25,996 nt of DNA from the NCBI RefSeq assembly GCF_003334315.1, contig NZ_QOWR01000064.1. One strand, written 5' to 3'. The notes under the pieces were generated by a model that was not told the DNA's origin, did not search any database, and was given only the letters and a program-made list of their open reading frames with translations. Shown here in pieces: positions 8,697-20,285 of this stretch (the stretch's first letter is position 1; the number at the start of each line of letters is the position of its first letter). The DNA is from Escherichia coli. Its GTDB lineage: Bacteria > Pseudomonadota > Gammaproteobacteria > Enterobacterales > Enterobacteriaceae. Position numbers and translations under genes: made by a program.

Positions 8697-9869
8697 TTAT
8701 GCCGTTTCAAACGTTCCTTTCACGCAGGCTTTGCCGTCTTTGACCATCAGTTTGCCGCGAGCGTATACCTGCTCAATGCGCAATTCTGGCGTCATGACCA
8801 GCAAGTCTGCGTCATTGCCTGGCAGAATTTCGCCTTTCCCGGTCAGGTTAAGGAAACCGGCTACGCTACTGGTGAGCGGGCGCAGGGCATCGCTGATACT
8901 GAAATCATAGTCTTTGACCAGCACTTGCACGGTTTCCAGCAACGTTTCAAAACCGGCAACACCGATATGGGTTAAATTCCCTTCGTCATCGAAGAACGGC
9001 TGGCTACCGTTGCCGTCGGAGCTGAGGGTGACGCGTGTCAGCGGAATACCCGCCTGAACGGCGCGGGCAATACCTTCGGCAGGGGCGACCGGTTCGTCAA
9101 TGCTGCTGGTGATATCGATAGTGCCGCCTTTGCGCGCGAACTCAAGCGCCTGCTCAAACAACGGAACGTTGCGGTTAACGTGGGTCGGCAGCAACTTGCT
9201 GATCGGCACATCGCAGTTTTCCAGCAGGTCATAGACAGGCTGTAACGCCTTTTTGCTGTCGCCCATGTGGAACACGGTGACGCCAGGTTTACCGCCGAGC
9301 AAACCGCCAACGCGGGATTCCGCCGCCATATTAGCCAGGTGATAAACGTCCGGTGCGGCAGAACGGTGATCAGAGATGGCGCATTTCACACCAATCACAC
9401 GATCGATAATCGCCACGTCTTTTTCCACTGAACCCGTAATAGTGCGGGAAGGGACATGATAAGCGCCGGTCAGCATCCAGGCGCTGATGCCTTCTTCATT
9501 GAGCGCACGGGTCTTGGCGAGCAGGGATTCCGGGTGGCGAGAGATAGAGTCGGTGCCCAGCAGACCAACCACTGACGTGACGCCCGCTTCCGTCAGACGA
9601 CTTAACGCCACTTCCGGCGTGCGCGTCGTGGGACCTGCTTCGCCGCCACCGCCAATCAAATGGACGTGTTGATCAATAAAACCTGGGCAGAGGATCTGCC
9701 CGCTGAGATCGACAACCGTGCAGTCCGGTACAATGTCAGAAGGGATATTGCTGGCAACGGCGATAATTTTGCCGTTAGCGACGAGGACATCGCAAATTCC
9801 CCGATCTTCCGGCGCATACAAATGCGCTCCCTGCAGCAGGGTAAAACCGGCTGCGGTATAATCAATCAT
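8697..9869 (-). CDS. iadA: Isoaspartyl dipeptidase IadA (390 aa)
   Basis: Translation MIDYTAAGFTLLQGAHLYAPEDRGICDVLVANGKIIAV… with metal-dependent amidohydrolase motifs (DQHVHLIGGGGE); length and synteny. Confidence 0.9.
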   Translation of the reverse strand: MIDYTAAGFTLLQGAHLYAPEDRGICDVLVANGKIIAVASNIPSDIVPDCTVVDLSGQILCPGFIDQHVHLIGGGGEAGPTTRTPEVALSRLTEAGVTSVVGLLGTDSISRHPESLLAKTRALNEEGISAWMLTGAYHVPSRTITGSVEKDVAIIDRVIGVKCAISDHRSAAPDVYHLANMAAESRVGGLLGGKPGVTVFHMGDSKKALQPVYDLLENCDVPISKLLPTHVNRNVPLFEQALEFARKGGTIDITSSIDEPVAPAEGIARAVQAGIPLTRVTLSSDGNGSQPFFDDEGNLTHIGVAGFETLLETVQVLVKDYDFSISDALRPLTSSVAGFLNLTGKGEILPGNDADLLVMTPELRIEQVYARGKLMVKDGKACVKGTFETA

Positions 9870-9881
9870 GGTAACTCCTTG

Positions 9882-10343
9882 TTAAACAATAAGCTGCATA
9901 ACCCAGATCGACAGCAATGCGTTAATAACGCAGACCGTAATGATATGCGGGTAATATTTGGCATTCACTTCGGCTGTCCCCAGGCAGCGACCGACATTTT
10001 GCACCGGGTTGCCCATTAAATACATCGCGGGTAGTAAAACGGTGACATCGTGGCCGGTTAAAGCGCCAGCGGTCGCCAGACTGGCGGCAACACCGACTGC
10101 GCCGCCCATACTCATCAATGCGGCTAAAAGGACGGTTGCCGCTTCACCAGGCAATCCCCACAGCGCCATTACGGGTTCACAGATATGCCCCACCCAGTCG
10201 AGCAGGCCGGTAATTTTCAGCGCCTGAATGATGACAAACGCCATCACCACGTTTGGCAGCAGGTTGGTCGTGGCGATAGTAAAGCCACGGCGCGCGCCAT
10301 CGATAAACATATCCATGACGTTTTTGCGGACCTGAGTTGTCAT
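9882..10343 (-). CDS. yjiG: YjiG, SpmB-like inner-membrane protein (153 aa)
   Basis: Hydrophobic ORF; start overlaps the yjiH stop (ATGA), suggesting translational coupling; synteny. Confidence 0.8.
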   Translation of the reverse strand: MTTQVRKNVMDMFIDGARRGFTIATTNLLPNVVMAFVIIQALKITGLLDWVGHICEPVMALWGLPGEAATVLLAALMSMGGAVGVAASLATAGALTGHDVTVLLPAMYLMGNPVQNVGRCLGTAEVNAKYYPHIITVCVINALLSIWVMQLIV

Positions 10344-11023
10344 GCTTGCGCTCCTTGCGTTGGGTTGCGACGTTCTTCGAAGTTAAGCCAGACGCGCAAA
10401 ATGTTGGCTCCGACAAATTTAAACACCAGGATGACGGCTAAAGGTACGATTACGGACGTGCCCAGAAAGGCAAACACCGCGACGCCGGAAGAGAAGTAGT
10501 TGGTGATGATGGCGCTACCGCTGGTTTGATATGCGGCGAAAATCACTTTATCGCGTTCGGTAATTTCACCTTCCTGCGCCAGCTCTTTGGTCATACCGGC
10601 GGCGGCATCAGTGTTTTGCAAGTTAGCGATCAGCGCCAGCGAGCAGATCCCTGGAATGCCCAACAACGGTTTTAGCACAGGTGTCATTAACTGCTGCGCG
10701 GCGCGTAATCCACCAAGACCATCGGTAATTGAAATAATCCCCAGAGAGAGAATGACTGACGGTGCCAGTTCCAGCGCAAAGAGAAAGCCATCTTTAGCCC
10801 CCGCGCCACCCGCCCCGCGAAATGAGGTGGTGGCTCCGTTCGCACCAGGCAGTTGCCCAAACGATCCGTTCAGCACGGAAAAATCAAAAACGCGCCACCA
10901 GCTGTCTGTTCCGGAAAAAACACCGGAAAAAAAGATTATGGTGAGAAAAAAAGCCAGATACCCTTTAATGCCCACTTTTTCTGTCGCCAGCTCCCCGGCT
11001 ACAGCATCCCCTTGTTGTGTCAT
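10340..11023 (-). CDS. yjiH: YjiH, nucleoside-recognition (Gate) domain membrane protein (227 aa)
   Basis: Membrane ORF; I chose the start MTQQGDAV… (ATG 11023-11021) to give the expected 227 aa. The ORF track starts 4 codons upstream. Confidence 0.75.
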   Translation of the reverse strand: MTQQGDAVAGELATEKVGIKGYLAFFLTIIFFSGVFSGTDSWWRVFDFSVLNGSFGQLPGANGATTSFRGAGGAGAKDGFLFALELAPSVILSLGIISITDGLGGLRAAQQLMTPVLKPLLGIPGICSLALIANLQNTDAAAGMTKELAQEGEITERDKVIFAAYQTSGSAIITNYFSSGVAVFAFLGTSVIVPLAVILVFKFVGANILRVWLNFEERRNPTQGAQA

Positions 11024-11272
11024 AACAATCCCCATTGTTTTTTTGTGTTTGTGTGTTGCTTGAGCCAGGAAAATTCCTGGAGCTGAAAAACCTTATCAGC
11101 CATGTGGGTATGGGGAAAATGCAAGTATGTTTCTGGCTATGCGTTTTTTGCATAGCGGAAAAATTACGCTGTGTGGAAAAGGCTCTGCGCAGGATTGAGT
11201 TGCAGAAAATTCATAAACCCAGTGACAATGACATCAGTAAATAAAAGCAGAAAATCCAGGGACGAAAACGAG

Positions 11273-11827
11273 ATGGCAAAGTACAACGAAAAAGAGCTGG
11301 CGGATACGAGCAAGTTTTTAAGTTTTGTCCTCCGACACAAACCGGAGGCGATTGGTATCGTACTTGACCGTGAAGGATGGGCGGATATCGATAAGCTCAT
11401 ACTTTGTGCCCAAAAAGCGGGCAAGCGATTAACCCGTACATTGCTGGATACCGTGGTCGCCACCAGTGATAAAAAGCGTTTTAGTTATTCCAGTGATGGT
11501 AGGTGCATCCGCGCGGTTCAGGGGCATTTGACTTCGCAGGTCGCTATTTCCTTTGCCGAAAAAACACCGCCACAGTTTCTTTACCACGGTACGGCAAGCC
11601 GTTTCCTTGACGAGATAAAAAAACAGGGGCTGATTGCAGGTGAGCGTCACTACGTACATCTCTCTGCTGATGAAGCAACGGCACGCAAAGTGGGAGCAAG
11701 ACACGGATCGCCGGTTATCTTAACCGTCAAAGCACAGGAAATGGCGAAACGAGGCATCCCTTTCTGGCAAACGGAAAACGGGGTCTGGCTGACATCAACG
11801 GTTGCGGTCGAATTTCTTGAGTGGTAA
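11273..11827 (+). CDS. kptA: KptA, Tpt1-family RNA 2'-phosphotransferase (184 aa)
   Basis: Translation from [29 protein letters not shown]… is recognisable as the Tpt1/KptA family. The ORF track begins 34 codons upstream, but the start at 11273 gives the expected 184 aa. Confidence 0.85.
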
Positions 11828-11839
11828 GGGAAACACTCC

Positions 11840-13018
11840 TCATGAAGTGACCACTTGCAGCTTAAATAATTGTACTGTGCTGATAAGCGCAGCAATAAAC
11901 AACGCCGCCGCGCCGCAGAGAGTGGCGCCGGCAAGCGCCGATGTTCCATTGCCGAGCATACTGGTCAGCGCCGGGCCGAGGATTTGTCCAATGCCGTAAA
12001 TGAGCGTCACAAAGCCTAAAAGATTGAGATTTCCCGGAACGCTCAGTTGGCGGGCGATAGTCATCACCAGAGATGTCGTGCCCATAAAGGTACCGCCAAA
12101 ACCGATACTACTAATGATAAGCAAGAGAGGAGAGTCGCTGGCGAGAGTAAGCAGCACACTGATAGCCTGCACCAGCAAATTCGCCGTCAGGCAAGGCAAA
12201 GCCCCCCAACGTTTTGCTGCCCATAGCCAGCCAAAGCAGCCTGGCACAATTGATAAGCCGACTAACGTCCAGAGATGGGCGGTTAACAATGGTGAGCCTG
12301 CATCTTTCGCCATGAGCGGCAGGTAAGTCGCGACGATGATATAACCAAATCCCGCCAGGCCGTACAGAATAGCCAGTAACCACCAGCTCATTATCTGTTG
12401 CTCCGTTTTTGCCAATGGCATTGGTGCGATGGCGTGTTTTTTCGAGGGCATTAAAAGCGTAAGTGCAATCAGCATCATGCCAGAAAGCGCCCCGGCGCCT
12501 TGCCATAACGTTTGCGAGGATAAGGCAAAATGCAGGCCTGCCAGAACATATTCGTTGCCCAGTGCAATGCCAATGCCAACGCCAGAAAACAAAGCTGCCA
12601 GCACAAAAGGATGGCGCGTGTGCTGCATAATCAGCGTCGAACCAAAAATCAGCATACCGGCGCTGGCGACACCCGCCAGGAAGCGAATCAATAACACCAG
12701 AATAAATGGCGGCAACCATGCCATTGCGAGGATCAACAACCCGCTCGCCAGGGCAGAAACCAACAGAAATGGGCGCAGGCGCGACGGCTGGTGAAATGCG
12801 CCAAACGAAAATAGCAGACTGCCAGCCAGATACCCCGCATAGTTGCCGCTGGCAATCCACGAGAGCTGGCTAAATGAAAACGCCCCTTCCGCCATCATGA
12901 CGGGCAACATAGGCGTATAAAGGAAGCGACCTAATCCCATACCTAAGGTCAGAACCAGCATCCCGAAAAGCGCGGTGCTGAAAGAAAAGCGTTCTACGGG
13001 ATGCGAGGACGAAGGCAT
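11840..13018 (-). CDS. yjiJ: YjiJ, MFS-type membrane transporter of unknown substrate (392 aa)
   Basis: Polytopic hydrophobic ORF; length and synteny. Confidence 0.8.
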
Positions 13019-16308: not shown

Positions 16309-17589
16309 CTAAAAATTGCTGAGGGGGAACAAGGCCGGGAGCTGCGACAACAAATATAAAATTAGCCCAATACAACCGCCAACCAGCGTACCGTTGACAC
16401 GGATAAACTGCAGATCTTTGCCGATATTTAACTCGATTTGCCGCGACATATCCCGAGCATCCCAGCTTTTTACTGTATCGCTGATGTGGCGCGTCAGGAA
16501 TGCGGAAAACTCAGGCGCGACGCGGTGCGCGGCTTGTTCCAGGTGACCATTTAACGATGCCCGCAAGGCATCATCGGCAATTAACGTTTCGCCAAACCAT
16601 TGACCCGCCCGCGCGATACGTTCTTTCACACGAGAATCTTCACTGTTGATATCCGCTTTCAGCCATTCCCGTAAATCCCCCCACAATTCACTGAGATAGC
16701 GGTTAAAAGCTTCATCTTCTTTCAGATAACTTTTTACGGCATCGGCTCGCGCTGCCATTTCCGGATCGTTTTTCAACTTGTCGATCAGGGCAAAAGTGGC
16801 GCGATCAAACGCATGACGGATCTGATGCGCACGATCACGGCTGATATCATCAAGCAAAGAATTCACCGCGTCAGAAACCAACTCCGCGCTATGTTCGCCC
16901 AACCATTCGGTGGGGAGAATTTTGGCTTTCAGTGGATGCTCACTCTCCAGCCAGCGAACAATCTGCTGGGCAATAAACTTGCGCGATTTATCGCGCTGGA
17001 GAAGGGCGATCAACTGTGCGATCAGCGTATCGAGCAGCACCTGATGACGATCGTTTTTGGTCATACTCTCCAGCATCAACGCACTGGTTCCGGAAAGATC
17101 GACCATATCAATCGCCCGATGGACCGCGCGCTTAAGCAGGCGCTGAATACGTGCATCATCGGTCAGTTCAAGAAAACCGCTCATGATCTGCAACAGATGC
17201 TGACCAACGCGGCGGGCGTTCTCCGGCTGACTAAACCAGTTGCCAATCAACAACGCCGGTTCGTGACGTCGAATCAATGCCACCAGCGACTGGGTATCGA
17301 GAAATTTTTCCTGCACGAACTGACCGAGATTTTCGCCAATCCGGTCTTTATTACGCGGGATAATCGCCGTATGACGAGAAATGATCGGAATCGGCACGCG
17401 GCGAAACAGCGCCACCACCGCAAACCAGTCCGCCAGCGCGCCGACCATCGCCGCTTCAGCAATCGCCTTCACGCCGCTCACCCAAAAATTGGGCGGCAAA
17501 AACAGCGTAACTACAAAGGTAGCAGCGGCGATAAGCAGTAAAGAGAGCGCCAACATTTTGGCGCGTCTGAGTTCAATGAGTTTATTCAT
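16309..17589 (-). CDS. yjiN: YjiN, DUF445-family inner-membrane protein (426 aa)
   Basis: ORF with N-terminal and C-terminal hydrophobic segments; length and synteny. Confidence 0.8.
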
Positions 17590-17629
17590 AACGTTAAGAA
17601 TAGAGCCTGACGGCAGGATCGCGCAAAAA

Positions 17630-18862
17630 TCACCGCTCCTCCGCCAGCTCGGCAGCCTGATGTTGGCGCACGCGATTGAGCAATCCCGCCAGGGTGAAAA
17701 CGACGATAACGCCCGCCACGACGGCTAACAGATGAAACGGCAAGCGACCGCCGTTAAACCACAGCCAGCGGCCGATTTCGACCGAGACAGACATCACCAT
17801 CAGGATCACCATATTCAGCGATGCGGAGACGGTCCCTTTCGGTAAGTTATTGGAAAAAAGCGTAAAGCGGAATAAAGTCGGGAAGATCAAACCAATCCCG
17901 AAAGCATACAAACTGGTGCCCAGCACCGACCACAGCCAGACGTGCGGTGACAGCAGATTGCCGATAATCAACAGTGCGAGGCCGACCAGTTGAATGGGTA
18001 CGGCACGCCAGATAAAGCGCGGTTCGGTCGGATCTTTAACGAAACGCGCCACGATGGCATTCGCGACAATCACCGCGCCGAACACCGGAACCTGTGTCCA
18101 GGCGAACTGCGAGGTCGTTAAGCCGCCTGCGTCAATCAGGATCACCGGCGAGACAGCCACCCAACTCATCATGGGGATATAGCTTAAAGAGATGGTTGCT
18201 GCACCAAAGAGGAACAGCCGATTGCAAAAGACATTACGAAAATCGCGCAAGACGCTTTTGGCGCTAAATGGAACCGCGCCGCGCTTCACCGTCTCTGGCA
18301 TCGCCAGCAGTAAGCCAACAAATGAGATAAAACCCATAACCGCAATGATGGCAAAAAGGACTTTCCAGTGCACAAAGTGCATCAGAGCTGCGCCGGAAAG
18401 CGGGCCAATAATCGGCGCAATCAGTACGATGGAGGTGATAATCGCCATCAACTTGATCCCTTTTGTCTGTCCGAACGCCTCCTGCACCGTGACATAACCA
18501 ACGGTAGCAATAAAACAGATACTGGTGCCCTGAATTGCACGCGCGATAAGAAACTGTGTCATAGACGTTGTGAACATTGTCGCAGCGCAGGCAAGGGTAA
18601 AAATGAGCGCCCCGGTAATCAGCACTGGCCTGCGGCCAATCCTGTCGGAAAGCGGCCCCAGCAGCCACTGTAACGCCATACCGCCAGCGAGATAGAGACT
18701 GACGGCAGCAGGGGCCAGACTGACATCGGCATTAAAATCACGGACCACATTAATGATCCCCGGCTGGATCAGATCCGTCGACAGGTACGCGGCAAAGTCA
18801 TACAAAATCAACGCCATCGGGAAAAACAGCGTGGCGGCATGGCGGGCAAAAAAACGTGGCAT
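17630..18862 (-). CDS. mdtM: MdtM (YjiO), MFS multidrug efflux pump (410 aa)
   Basis: 12-TM MFS-like ORF beginning [36 protein letters not shown]…; the ORF-track start is 3 codons upstream. Confidence 0.88.
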
Positions 18863-19328: not shown

Positions 19329-20285
19329 ATGACAAACTTCACGACCAGCACGCTGCATGACGCATTATTTAAGTCCTTTCTCACGCACCCTGACACCGCG
19401 CGGGATTTTATGGAGATCCACTTACCCAAAGATTTACGTGAACTGTGCGATCTCGACAGCTTAAAACTGGAGTCAGCCAGCTTTGTCGATGAAAAATTGC
19501 GGGCGCTACACTCCGATATTCTGTGGTCGGTAAAGACCCGTGAAGGTGATGGCTATATCTATGTGGTGATTGAACATCAGAGCCGTGAGGATATTCATAT
19601 GGCCTTTCGCCTGATGCGCTATTCCATGGCGGTGATGCAGCGCCATATCGAGCATGATAAACGCCGGCAGCTACCGCTGGTCATCCCGATGCTGTTTTAT
19701 CACGGTAGCCGTAGTCCTTATCCCTGGTCCCTGTGCTGGCTGGACGAATTTGCCGACCCGACTACTGCACGGAAACTTTATACTGCAGCGTTCCCGCTGG
19801 TGGATGTCACTGTCGTGCCAGACGACGAGATTGTGCAGCACCGCAGAGTCGCCCTGTTGGAGTTGATCCAAAAGCATATTCGCCAGCGCGACCTGATGGG
19901 GCTTATCGATCAACTGGTAATATTACTGGTTACAGAGTGTGCTAATGACAGCCAGATAACTGCGCTGTTAAATTACATTTTACTGACTGGCGATGAAGCG
20001 CGTTTTAAGGCGTTTATCAGCGAACTTACCAGGCGAATGCCACACCACAGGGAGCGAATAATGACAATTGCAGAGCGAATTCATAATGATGGATGGCTGT
20101 TGGGAAGGGAGAGGGGGAGGAAAGAAGGGAAAGTAGAAGGGGAACGGAGCCTCCTCCGATTGTTGTTGCAGAATGGGGCCGATCCTGAATGGATACAACG
20201 ATATACCGGACTTTCGGCAGAGCAAATGCAGGCATTAGATCAGCCCTTGCCTGAAAGCAAGCGCGAACCATGGATCGAGTACTAA
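19329..20285 (+). CDS. rpnD: RpnD (YjiP/YjiQ), Rpn/YhgA-like recombination-promoting nuclease (PD-(D/E)xK), apparently intact at 318 aa
   Basis: N-terminal motifs typical of the Rpn/transposase_31 family (HDALFKSFL…, DILWSV…YVVIEHQS); basic, Gly/Arg/Glu-rich C-terminal tail; position between mdtM and yjiR. Confidence 0.8.
20061..20285 (+). CDS. Candidate nested RpnS-like small protein (in-frame C-terminal 74 aa of rpnD)
   Basis: Internal in-frame ATG ([12 protein letters not shown]…) preceded by GGGAG with a 6-nt spacer. Rpn genes are reported to encode such intragenic small proteins that antagonise the full-length nuclease; not verified for this gene. Confidence 0.4.

Follow-up and report, generated by a model that had tools for sequence, protein, structure and literature searches.

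What is the RNA 2'-phosphotransferase KptA of Escherichia coli for, and does the position of its gene on the chromosome hold a clue? The gene examined here lies at positions 11273 to 11827 of a 25,996-nucleotide stretch of E. coli DNA (contig NZ_QOWR01000064.1), which we call the window. An initial annotation had described it as a known gene in an accessory-flavoured block, close to transporters and to nuclease or toxin genes, with a physiological substrate that is unresolved. The literature bears out the last point for E. coli. We find that kptA is a known, annotated gene whose local context in E. coli carries no functional signal. In other bacteria kptA recurs directly beside a polymorphic toxin and a small immunity gene, and this module gives a concrete handle on a question that has been open since the late 1990s, namely the purpose of the bacterial RNA 2'-phosphotransferase. 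The gene and its catalytic codons are as follows.

11273..11827, plus strand: coding sequence of kptA, an RNA 2'-phosphotransferase of the Tpt1/KptA family; an ATG-to-TAA open reading frame (ORF) of 184 codons plus stop
11333..11338, plus strand: codons of Arg21-His22, the first two residues of the Arg-His-Arg-Arg tetrad, intact on translation
11471..11479, plus strand: codons of Lys67-Lys68-Arg69 (AAA AAG CGT in the sequence and its translation), Arg69 being the third tetrad residue
11645..11647, plus strand: codon of Arg125, the fourth tetrad residue, intact on translation and in the alignment of relatives

The protein matches PF01885 (PTS_2-RNA, Tpt1/KptA) over residues 10-175 (model positions 4-176 of 177, E 3.7e-46 in Pfam), and the NCBIfam equivalog NF002012 'RNA 2'-phosphotransferase' over residues 1-184 of 184 with 423 bits against a cut-off of 233. 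It aligns over 173 residues with the solved Tpt1 of Runella slithyformis (7kw8, E 2e-43) and over 172-173 residues with that of Clostridium thermocellum (6e3a, E 1e-32). The kptA-annotated genes of E. coli strains E2865 and 2017.13.01CC have 100% DNA identity to the window gene, and the protein is WP_001151863.1. All four of the residues named as the E. coli KptA tetrad (PMC6097658), R21, H22, R69 and R125, are present. They are essential in E. coli KptA according to Sawaya 2005, as quoted in PMC6097658. Positions 21 and 22 of the tetrad are kept in 144-145 of 150 relatives, which are representatives of 50%-identity clusters. The HGT motif (H105-G106-T107), which binds the adenosine ribose of NAD+ (PMC8464070), is also present and is kept in 146-147 of the 150. 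Taken whole, the evidence makes it highly probable that 11273-11827 is the chromosomal E. coli gene kptA.

The picture of an accessory block did not hold. kptA is found once per genome in 5391 of 5426 complete E. coli genomes (99.4%), and its GC content of 49.9%, against a window mean of 50.0%, is typical of the species. The order hypT-iadA-yjiG-yjiH / kptA / yjiJ-yjiK-ytiA-yjiL-yjiM-yjiN is the same in strains E2865, 2017.13.01CC, S22EC, 729_270514, C and LWY24. Two ibeA-carrying strains among those sampled have this order with a kptA that is only 92-93% identical. The exceptions among the sampled strains are an iatD insertion in O157:H7 and a 5' deletion in MB64. In 3665 genomes >=80% of window positions 1-25000 lies in one place, and only the distal end of the window is variable. 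kptA is therefore a core gene of E. coli rather than an accessory gene or part of a genomic island. Thirty-five genomes lack any match, and three matches are on plasmid-labelled records.

A toxin, an immunity gene and kptA in other bacteria

We scanned one genome per species with a 15-sequence alignment and took the best 80 kptA loci of non-Escherichia genera, whose identities are 49-65%. As this set contains neither Shigella nor any other species of Escherichia, 'outside E. coli' here means outside the genus. Sixteen neighbouring window proteins were compared with the 80 loci by tblastn over 8 kb. The genes iadA, yjiG, yjiH, yjiJ, yjiK, ytiA, yjiL, yjiM and yjiN were found within that distance in none of the 80. 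The E. coli neighbours are thus not conserved partners of kptA. The initial annotation had proposed such a genomic-context comparison, and had itself named a context not conserved outside E. coli as the outcome that would count against its idea, which by that standard fails. Two close non-E. coli representatives (P0004 and P0005) lie on contigs of less than 2 kb, and their context is uninformative.

When the neighbouring ORFs within 3 kb of kptA were clustered across the 80 loci, only two families recurred across genera. These are large polymorphic toxins (14 loci) and a small protein of ~95-150 aa (10 loci). A cluster of neighbours in 12 high-GC loci was discarded, as it is an ORF that overlaps kptA in antisense. 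In every case the small gene is placed between the 3' end of the toxin gene and kptA, and in Proteobacteria kptA is convergent with it, abutting or overlapping by a few bases. The toxins share their last ~130 residues, with the motif IRFSQ...DG.LTS.DNTRI.AA..AGI, and differ in their N-terminal parts; that of Rosenbergiella carries PT-VENN (CdiA type). By tblastn the toxin domain and small gene adjoin kptA in 14 of the 80 loci. The 14 are in Gilliamella, Rosenbergiella, Kushneria, Pseudomonas, Duganella, Trinickia, Paraburkholderia, Rivibacter, an unclassified gammaproteobacterium, and one genome each of Methylococcaceae and Peptococcaceae.

Module and related loci, in our numbering: L016, L019, L022, L024, L036, L039-L042, L047, L060, L064, L069, L085, L095-L102, L104

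The association is also seen from the side of the toxin. Among 355 toxin-domain homologs at E <=1e-5, eight loci on long contigs were inspected. In seven of them the toxin gene is followed by the small gene and then by a PF01885 gene (two metagenome contigs, Vibrio ruber, Aeromonas veronii, an Enterococcus, Metasolibacillus meyeri and Photorhabdus khanii). In the eighth, from Pseudomonas segetis, a kptA remnant of 84 residues takes the place of the last gene. Plasmid records searched by tblastn with the toxin domain gave three further distinct loci. One is on the Bacillus mycoides plasmid pl391, where a gene annotated 'RNA 2'-phosphotransferase' and the immunity gene share 8 nt; the other two, in Neisseria gonorrhoeae and a Streptococcus Rhs toxin locus, have the toxin and immunity gene but lack kptA within 3 kb. 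In all, kptA or a remnant of it directly follows the immunity gene in 9 of 11 loci. The module spans Proteobacteria and Firmicutes. In the latter all three genes are co-directional, and kptA thus falls with the protective part of the cassette. No catalytic residue is missing from 19 of 20 module KptAs, in which position 86 is Ser or Thr; that of Vibrio ruber is truncated before Thr107, Arg125 and His129.

The toxin resembles the Tox-ParBL1 domain, a family that Zhang et al. 2012 (PMC3482391) established from sequence analysis and which has a predicted ParB fold, a conserved N-terminal Ser and N-T-R in place of the ParB GxxR. The SUKH-like immunity proteins of Tox-ParBL1, and its RHS, filamentous-haemagglutinin or type VII secretion system (T7SS) carriers, match as well. 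The toxin domain beside kptA is 50-53% identical to a sequence from Neisseria gonorrhoeae, the species of the Tox-ParBL1 type example. ToxB (bioRxiv 10.64898/2026.05.05.722872) belongs to another ParB-fold contact-dependent inhibition (CDI) family, with PF02195, a G-N-H-R motif and a different immunity protein. Neither the Tox-ParBL1 paper (PMC3482391) nor the ToxB preprint mentions KptA or Tpt1. In the literature searched we found no link of KptA or Tpt1 to ParB-like toxins; prior notice is possible in the RNA-repair comparative genomics of 2016. Where KptA appears beside toxin or conflict systems in that literature, it is treated only as part of RNA repair or as a model ADP-ribosyltransferase (PMC9503650 for phage RNA repair).

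The window kptA is stand-alone, since none of the 10 toxin domains or 10 immunity proteins compared by tblastn matched the window. Its convergence with yjiJ at 12 bp prompted the idea that it might be the relic of a toxin-immunity-kptA module, and this was rejected as there is no trace in the sequence. In the tree of KptA the module copies are interspersed with stand-alone ones, within the proteobacterial clade to which the E. coli protein belongs. That tree disagrees with taxonomy. E. coli KptA is 58-60% identical to its counterparts in Enterobacter, Kosakonia, Erwinia and Pectobacterium, compared with 56-62% for Accumulibacter and Pseudomonas; copies of other Enterobacterales overall are 49-65% identical. 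Above genus level kptA is patchy and looks horizontally moved, and within E. coli it appears old and fixed. Domain fusions among 143 relatives are to NUDIX (n=5) and microbial PARG (n=3), and show only that the ADP-ribose products need further handling.

Loss of kptA and the S86L allele

The E. coli gene is under selection and is nevertheless often broken. In a sample of 60 rows picked at regular intervals from the ranked list of the 5391 kptA hits, nine copies (~15%) have a net indel or truncation. RefSeq marks every broken copy inspected as 'frameshifted' or 'incomplete'. The lesion sites differ among broken alleles, and the inactivation events were therefore independent. In O157:H7 (L012, L009; equivalent of 11471-11839) a base is lost around codons 67-69, where the A5 run 11471-11475 lies, and the frame switches after SDK and before Arg69. 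The same lineage has a ~5-kb inverse autotransporter pseudogene, iatD, inserted between kptA and yjiJ. In IAI39 and three similar genomes the kptA match has a length of 554 nt, and the lesion of such alleles falls in the following run.

11617..11623, plus strand: A7 run, site of a 1-nt deletion in IAI39-type alleles (gap in the alignment of allele L004), intact in the window

MB64 (L010) has lost hypT, iadA, yjiG and yjiH by a deletion that also takes away 237 nt from the start of kptA (equivalent of ~7730-11509) and joins iraD directly to the remnant. Some single-base frameshifts in long-read assemblies may be sequencing errors, yet the O157:H7 and IAI39-type lesions recur in independent assemblies. 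Between intact alleles dN/dS is 0.04-0.15 in 9 of 10 pairs and 0.25 in the closest pair. Intact kptA is thus under purifying selection, yet has been inactivated repeatedly in whole lineages. Taken together this indicates a gene that is useful in nature but losable, in keeping with a deletion that is reported to have no laboratory phenotype.

Synonymous divergence among kptA alleles is 0.21-0.32 in 6 of 10 pairs, and nucleotide identity falls to 92% (window compared with L003 and L011). Such divergence seems high for an E. coli core gene. It may reflect a recombination-prone region beside hsd.

The window allele has an intact reading frame, with a change in a conserved motif that the initial annotation had overlooked.

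11528..11530, plus strand: codon 86, TTG (Leu) against TCG (Ser) in other E. coli alleles, by sequence and allele alignment; S86L lies in the Gly-His-Ser (GHS) motif, where the RNA lobe meets the inter-lobe linker

The motif in the window reads G84-H85-L86-T87, departing from the conserved Gly-His-Ser. Among the 150 relatives residue 86 is Ser in 140, Thr in 6, Arg in 2, Ala in 1 and a gap in 1, and is never Leu. Both of the Arg86 relatives are E. coli frameshift fragments, and the lone Ala is ambiguous ('GHCA', perhaps an alignment artefact). In C. thermocellum Tpt1 the side chain of the equivalent Ser hydrogen-bonds the catalytic His, and the GHS region is described as the only conserved part of the inter-lobe linker (PMC8464070). 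An exact 57-mer around the Leu codon is present in 264 of 5426 genomes, including O26:H11, O103, O6:H16, UMNK88 and poultry isolates, in line with 266 genomes that match the whole gene at >=99% identity. A second protein difference of the window allele from other E. coli alleles is A167T. The TCG-to-TTG change also occurs in the frameshifted, 92%-identical allele L004, while its intact sister L011 keeps Ser. S86L therefore arose at least twice.

How far does S86L impair the enzyme? The motif is conserved but is not known to be essential; the protein keeps its place in the family, and its full activity appears less assured. We give an even chance to the allele being a hypomorph, that is, a weakened rather than a dead enzyme. 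Even that degree of impairment has points against it. S86L has spread over several lineages with an otherwise intact ORF, as a strongly deleterious change would be unlikely to do, and mutational data for the GHS serine were not found in the accessible literature (which does not cover the Tpt1 alanine scan of 2005). A harsher interpretation is that S86L removes the hydroxyl that orients His22, leaving a functionally dead copy, an early pseudogene kept by inertia. The presence of Ser or Thr at 86 in 146 of 150 relatives, the hydrogen bond to the catalytic His in the C. thermocellum enzyme, the frequent decay of kptA in E. coli and the recurrence of S86L in an already frameshifted allele would all fit with this. 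However, the ORF is otherwise intact in ~264 genomes of several lineages, the 'GHCA' representative may (artefact aside) lack the serine, and single Ala changes of conserved Tpt1 residues (the His and Thr of HGT) are tolerated in vivo (PMC8464070). We consider a dead copy rather unlikely. Since ~5% of sequenced E. coli carry S86L, including O26:H11 and O103, natural 'mutants' are at hand, and given this allele and the broken ones the choice of strain matters for any experiment on KptA.

The E. coli locus and the wider window

The immediate flanks of kptA are these.

10340..11023, minus strand: yjiH, nucleoside-recognition-domain membrane protein, the divergent neighbour; it starts a co-directional yjiH-yjiG-iadA run (RefSeq annotation of identical DNA)
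11024..11272: yjiH-kptA divergent intergenic region, 41% GC, a 249-bp gap by the RefSeq start
11840..13018, minus strand: yjiJ, transporter of the major facilitator superfamily (MFS), convergent, 12 bp from the kptA stop (ORF and RefSeq annotation)

The divergence of kptA from yjiH and the closeness of a transporter were thus correctly described in the initial annotation. With yjiH divergent and yjiJ convergent, neither gene is in an operon with kptA. An in-frame ATG at 11228, 15 codons upstream of the accepted start, is used as the start by some annotations. RefSeq chose it for the O157:H7 kptA pseudogene, and N-terminal variants of 208 and 227 aa exist in the protein databases. The start codon may therefore be that at 11228 or that at 11273. 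The intergenic region contains one sigma-70-like match (11228-11255), where 1.0 is expected by chance, and promoter and terminator scans of the flanks gave nothing above chance. An Rfam scan around kptA found no family. In strain E2865 hypT, yjiK and ytiA (11448-12360, 16814-17674 and 17739-17995 of locus L001) are annotated as pseudogenes (frameshift, internal stop and frameshift, respectively); the corresponding window ORFs are open.

The whole window is E. coli chromosome from fimH to hsdS, 99.99-100% identical to 2017.13.01CC except at IS1 positions. A variable, defence-rich part with Rpn, GmrSD-type, symE, hsdS and IS1 begins ~7.5 kb downstream of kptA.

19329-20285: Rpn nuclease, 7.5 kb or more from kptA
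22378-24471, plus strand: intact GmrSD-type/DUF262 ORF of 697 aa; PADLOC Orf5 at 742 bits, also matching HEC-06 and type IV methyl-directed restriction enzyme models
24518-24916, minus strand: symE, toxin gene, ~13 kb from kptA
24854-24930, plus strand: SymR antitoxin RNA, antisense to the symE 5' end; Rfam RF01809 at 91 bits, the sole Rfam family in the window
25080-25757, minus strand: ORF of a truncated hsdS, specificity subunit, cut by an IS1 copy at 25793-25996

Nuclease and toxin genes (Rpn, GmrSD-type, symE/SymR and the truncated hsdS) are therefore real features of the window, but at 7.5-13 kb they are not close to kptA. IS1 splits the 697-aa GmrSD-type gene in 2017.13.01CC, and in E2865 the gene is in fragments. 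The P. khanii module (L099) is flanked by two SymE_toxin genes, at 1521-1724 and 4438-4575; the proximity of symE to kptA there and, at 13 kb, in the window is probably a coincidence within toxin islands. The IS1/hsdS junction is common to 2017.13.01CC and the window, and IS1 sequence brackets the window at both ends. At positions 1-453 the 3' part of an IS1 is joined (near 451-460) to fimH ~160 nt into the gene, truncating the adhesin gene. A 171-bp query across this junction was covered to >=80% in none of the 5426 complete E. coli genomes, and the junction is either a private insertion or an assembly join.

The role of KptA and its known comparators

The one well-established reaction of KptA is removal of a 2'-phosphate from RNA, and the mechanism of the family is established too. 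NAD+ is attacked at C1'' by the 2'-phosphate of the RNA, so that nicotinamide leaves and RNA-2'-phospho-ADP-ribose is formed. KptA of the K-12 type is active in vitro and in yeast (PMC6097658), yet deletion of kptA in E. coli gives no laboratory phenotype (PMC6333775), and no source of internal 2'-phosphates in E. coli is known (PMC6333775, PMC6097658). Most likely, stand-alone bacterial KptA serves in nature to remove 2'-phosphates that outside agents, rather than the cell's own metabolism, have placed on RNA. The best candidate for the source of the phosphate, as the genes beside kptA elsewhere suggest, is the Tox-ParBL1-type polymorphic toxin of the ParB/sulfiredoxin fold. Its closest structural relatives include ATP-dependent phosphotransferases (sulfiredoxin and free serine kinase). 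A phosphotransferase is the favoured reading of the toxin because a single enzyme fully reverses phosphorylation but not a strand break, and the module has no ligase.

In the mechanism that we propose, the Tox-ParBL1 domain would act as an ATP-dependent phosphotransferase that puts a 2'-phosphate on RNA or on a nucleotide cofactor with a 2'-OH. It would be delivered on carriers of the CdiA (PT-VENN), RHS, PAAR-like or T7SS-associated (LXG-island) kinds. The small SUKH-type protein would block the toxin, KptA would erase its mark using NAD+, and stand-alone copies such as E. coli kptA might be orphan antidotes against the toxins of neighbours. Such orphan antidotes would explain the existence of a competent KptA in a cell that has no known source of 2'-phosphates, the deletion without a laboratory phenotype, the patchy distribution among genera, and the loss or weakening (frameshifts, S86L) in some E. 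coli lineages. Several observations weigh against the proposal. The ParB-fold CDI toxin ToxB is reported only as a slow ATPase (bioRxiv 10.64898/2026.05.05.722872). The N. gonorrhoeae and Streptococcus Rhs toxin loci have the immunity gene without kptA within 3 kb, and kptA is stand-alone in 66 of the best 80 loci. The DNA of a Photorhabdus toxin-immunity pair finds nothing in the 5426 E. coli genomes. As neither the window nor these genomes gave a match to the toxin and immunity sequences compared with them, the link for E. coli is by analogy only. That bacterial KptA is the enzymatic half of immunity to contact-delivered toxins seems to us a tentative idea with the odds against it, and for E. 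coli kptA an orphan-antidote role is at best slightly better placed, and still doubtful.

An endogenous role without any toxin link is about as plausible as the general immunity proposal. It might be 5'-phosphate ADP-ribose capping of RNA or DNA, removal of terminal 2' or 3' phosphates when RNase-cut RNA is repaired, or dephosphorylation of 2'-phospho nucleotides such as NADP. Such activities are seen in vitro for some Tpt1 enzymes (PMC6182162, PMC6573784, PMC12678800), and in thermophilic archaea KptA erases the 2'-phospho-U47 of tRNA (PMC9095486). The NUDIX and PARG fusions (5 and 3 among the 143 relatives) also point to handling of an ADP-ribose product. Yet the deletion has no phenotype in E. 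coli, whole lineages such as O157:H7 have no working copy, and the patchy, non-vertical distribution is unlike that of a housekeeping gene.

Two further explanations place kptA in defence. It is very unlikely that it is an anti-phage gene or that it counters RNA damage brought about by phages. KptA is used for RNA repair by some phages that carry it (PMC9503650), and the distal end of the window is a variable restriction and defence region, but no PADLOC-DB 2.0 family matches KptA at E <=1. No defence partner adjoins kptA in E. coli or the best 80 loci, toxin-immunity pairs aside, and those pairs belong to inter-bacterial competition (PT-VENN/CdiA, RHS, LXG, and a Pseudomonas N-terminus read as PAAR-like). 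Still less credible, and to our minds close to negligible, is the view that kptA and its E. coli neighbours (yjiH-yjiG-iadA; yjiJ-yjiK, yjiL-yjiM) act as one accessory or defence block. The stability of the arrangement across E. coli and the presence of the GmrSD-type ORF, symE/SymR and hsdS at the far end might be taken in its favor. The absence of these neighbours from all 80 loci, the lack of a shared operon, the tolerance of the 5-kb iatD insertion by O157:H7 and of the hypT-to-kptA deletion by MB64, and the lack of a PADLOC match for KptA, with defence genes 7.5-13 kb off, speak against it. As a feature of the window kptA thus matters little; what is worth keeping is S86L, the frequent natural inactivation and the toxin module.

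The closest comparator is KptA of E. coli K-12, whose locus, length and neighbours match those of the window, with the tetrad R21-H22-R69-R125 identical. The MG1655 kptA DNA is 97.7% identical, as is that of strain C. Against the strain C protein, that of the window shows S86L in its GHS motif, together with A167T and a small number of conservative changes. The Tpt1 proteins of Saccharomyces cerevisiae, R. slithyformis and C. thermocellum belong to the same two-lobe family and have catalytic motifs in common with the window KptA, but all three keep the GHS serine, unlike the window allele. The essential substrate of yeast Tpt1 is defined, namely the 2'-phosphate that splicing leaves at the junction in tRNA; in E. 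coli no source of internal 2'-phosphates is known. A precedent for a writer and eraser pair is found in archaea, where the 2'-phospho-U47 that KptA removes is written by the kinase ArkI (PMC9095486). The archaeal pair serves a housekeeping modification of thermophiles; no ArkI-like kinase is annotated in the window, where no search for one was made. The ADP-ribosylhydrolase Tri1 reverses the action of the ADP-ribosyltransferase toxin Tre1, and is a case of enzymatic immunity. Mark-reversing immunity enzymes are discussed in PMC11833690. Immunity of the Tri1/Tre1 type combines a toxin-binding protein with an enzyme that undoes the mark, and the proposed ParBL1-KptA pair would follow the same logic.

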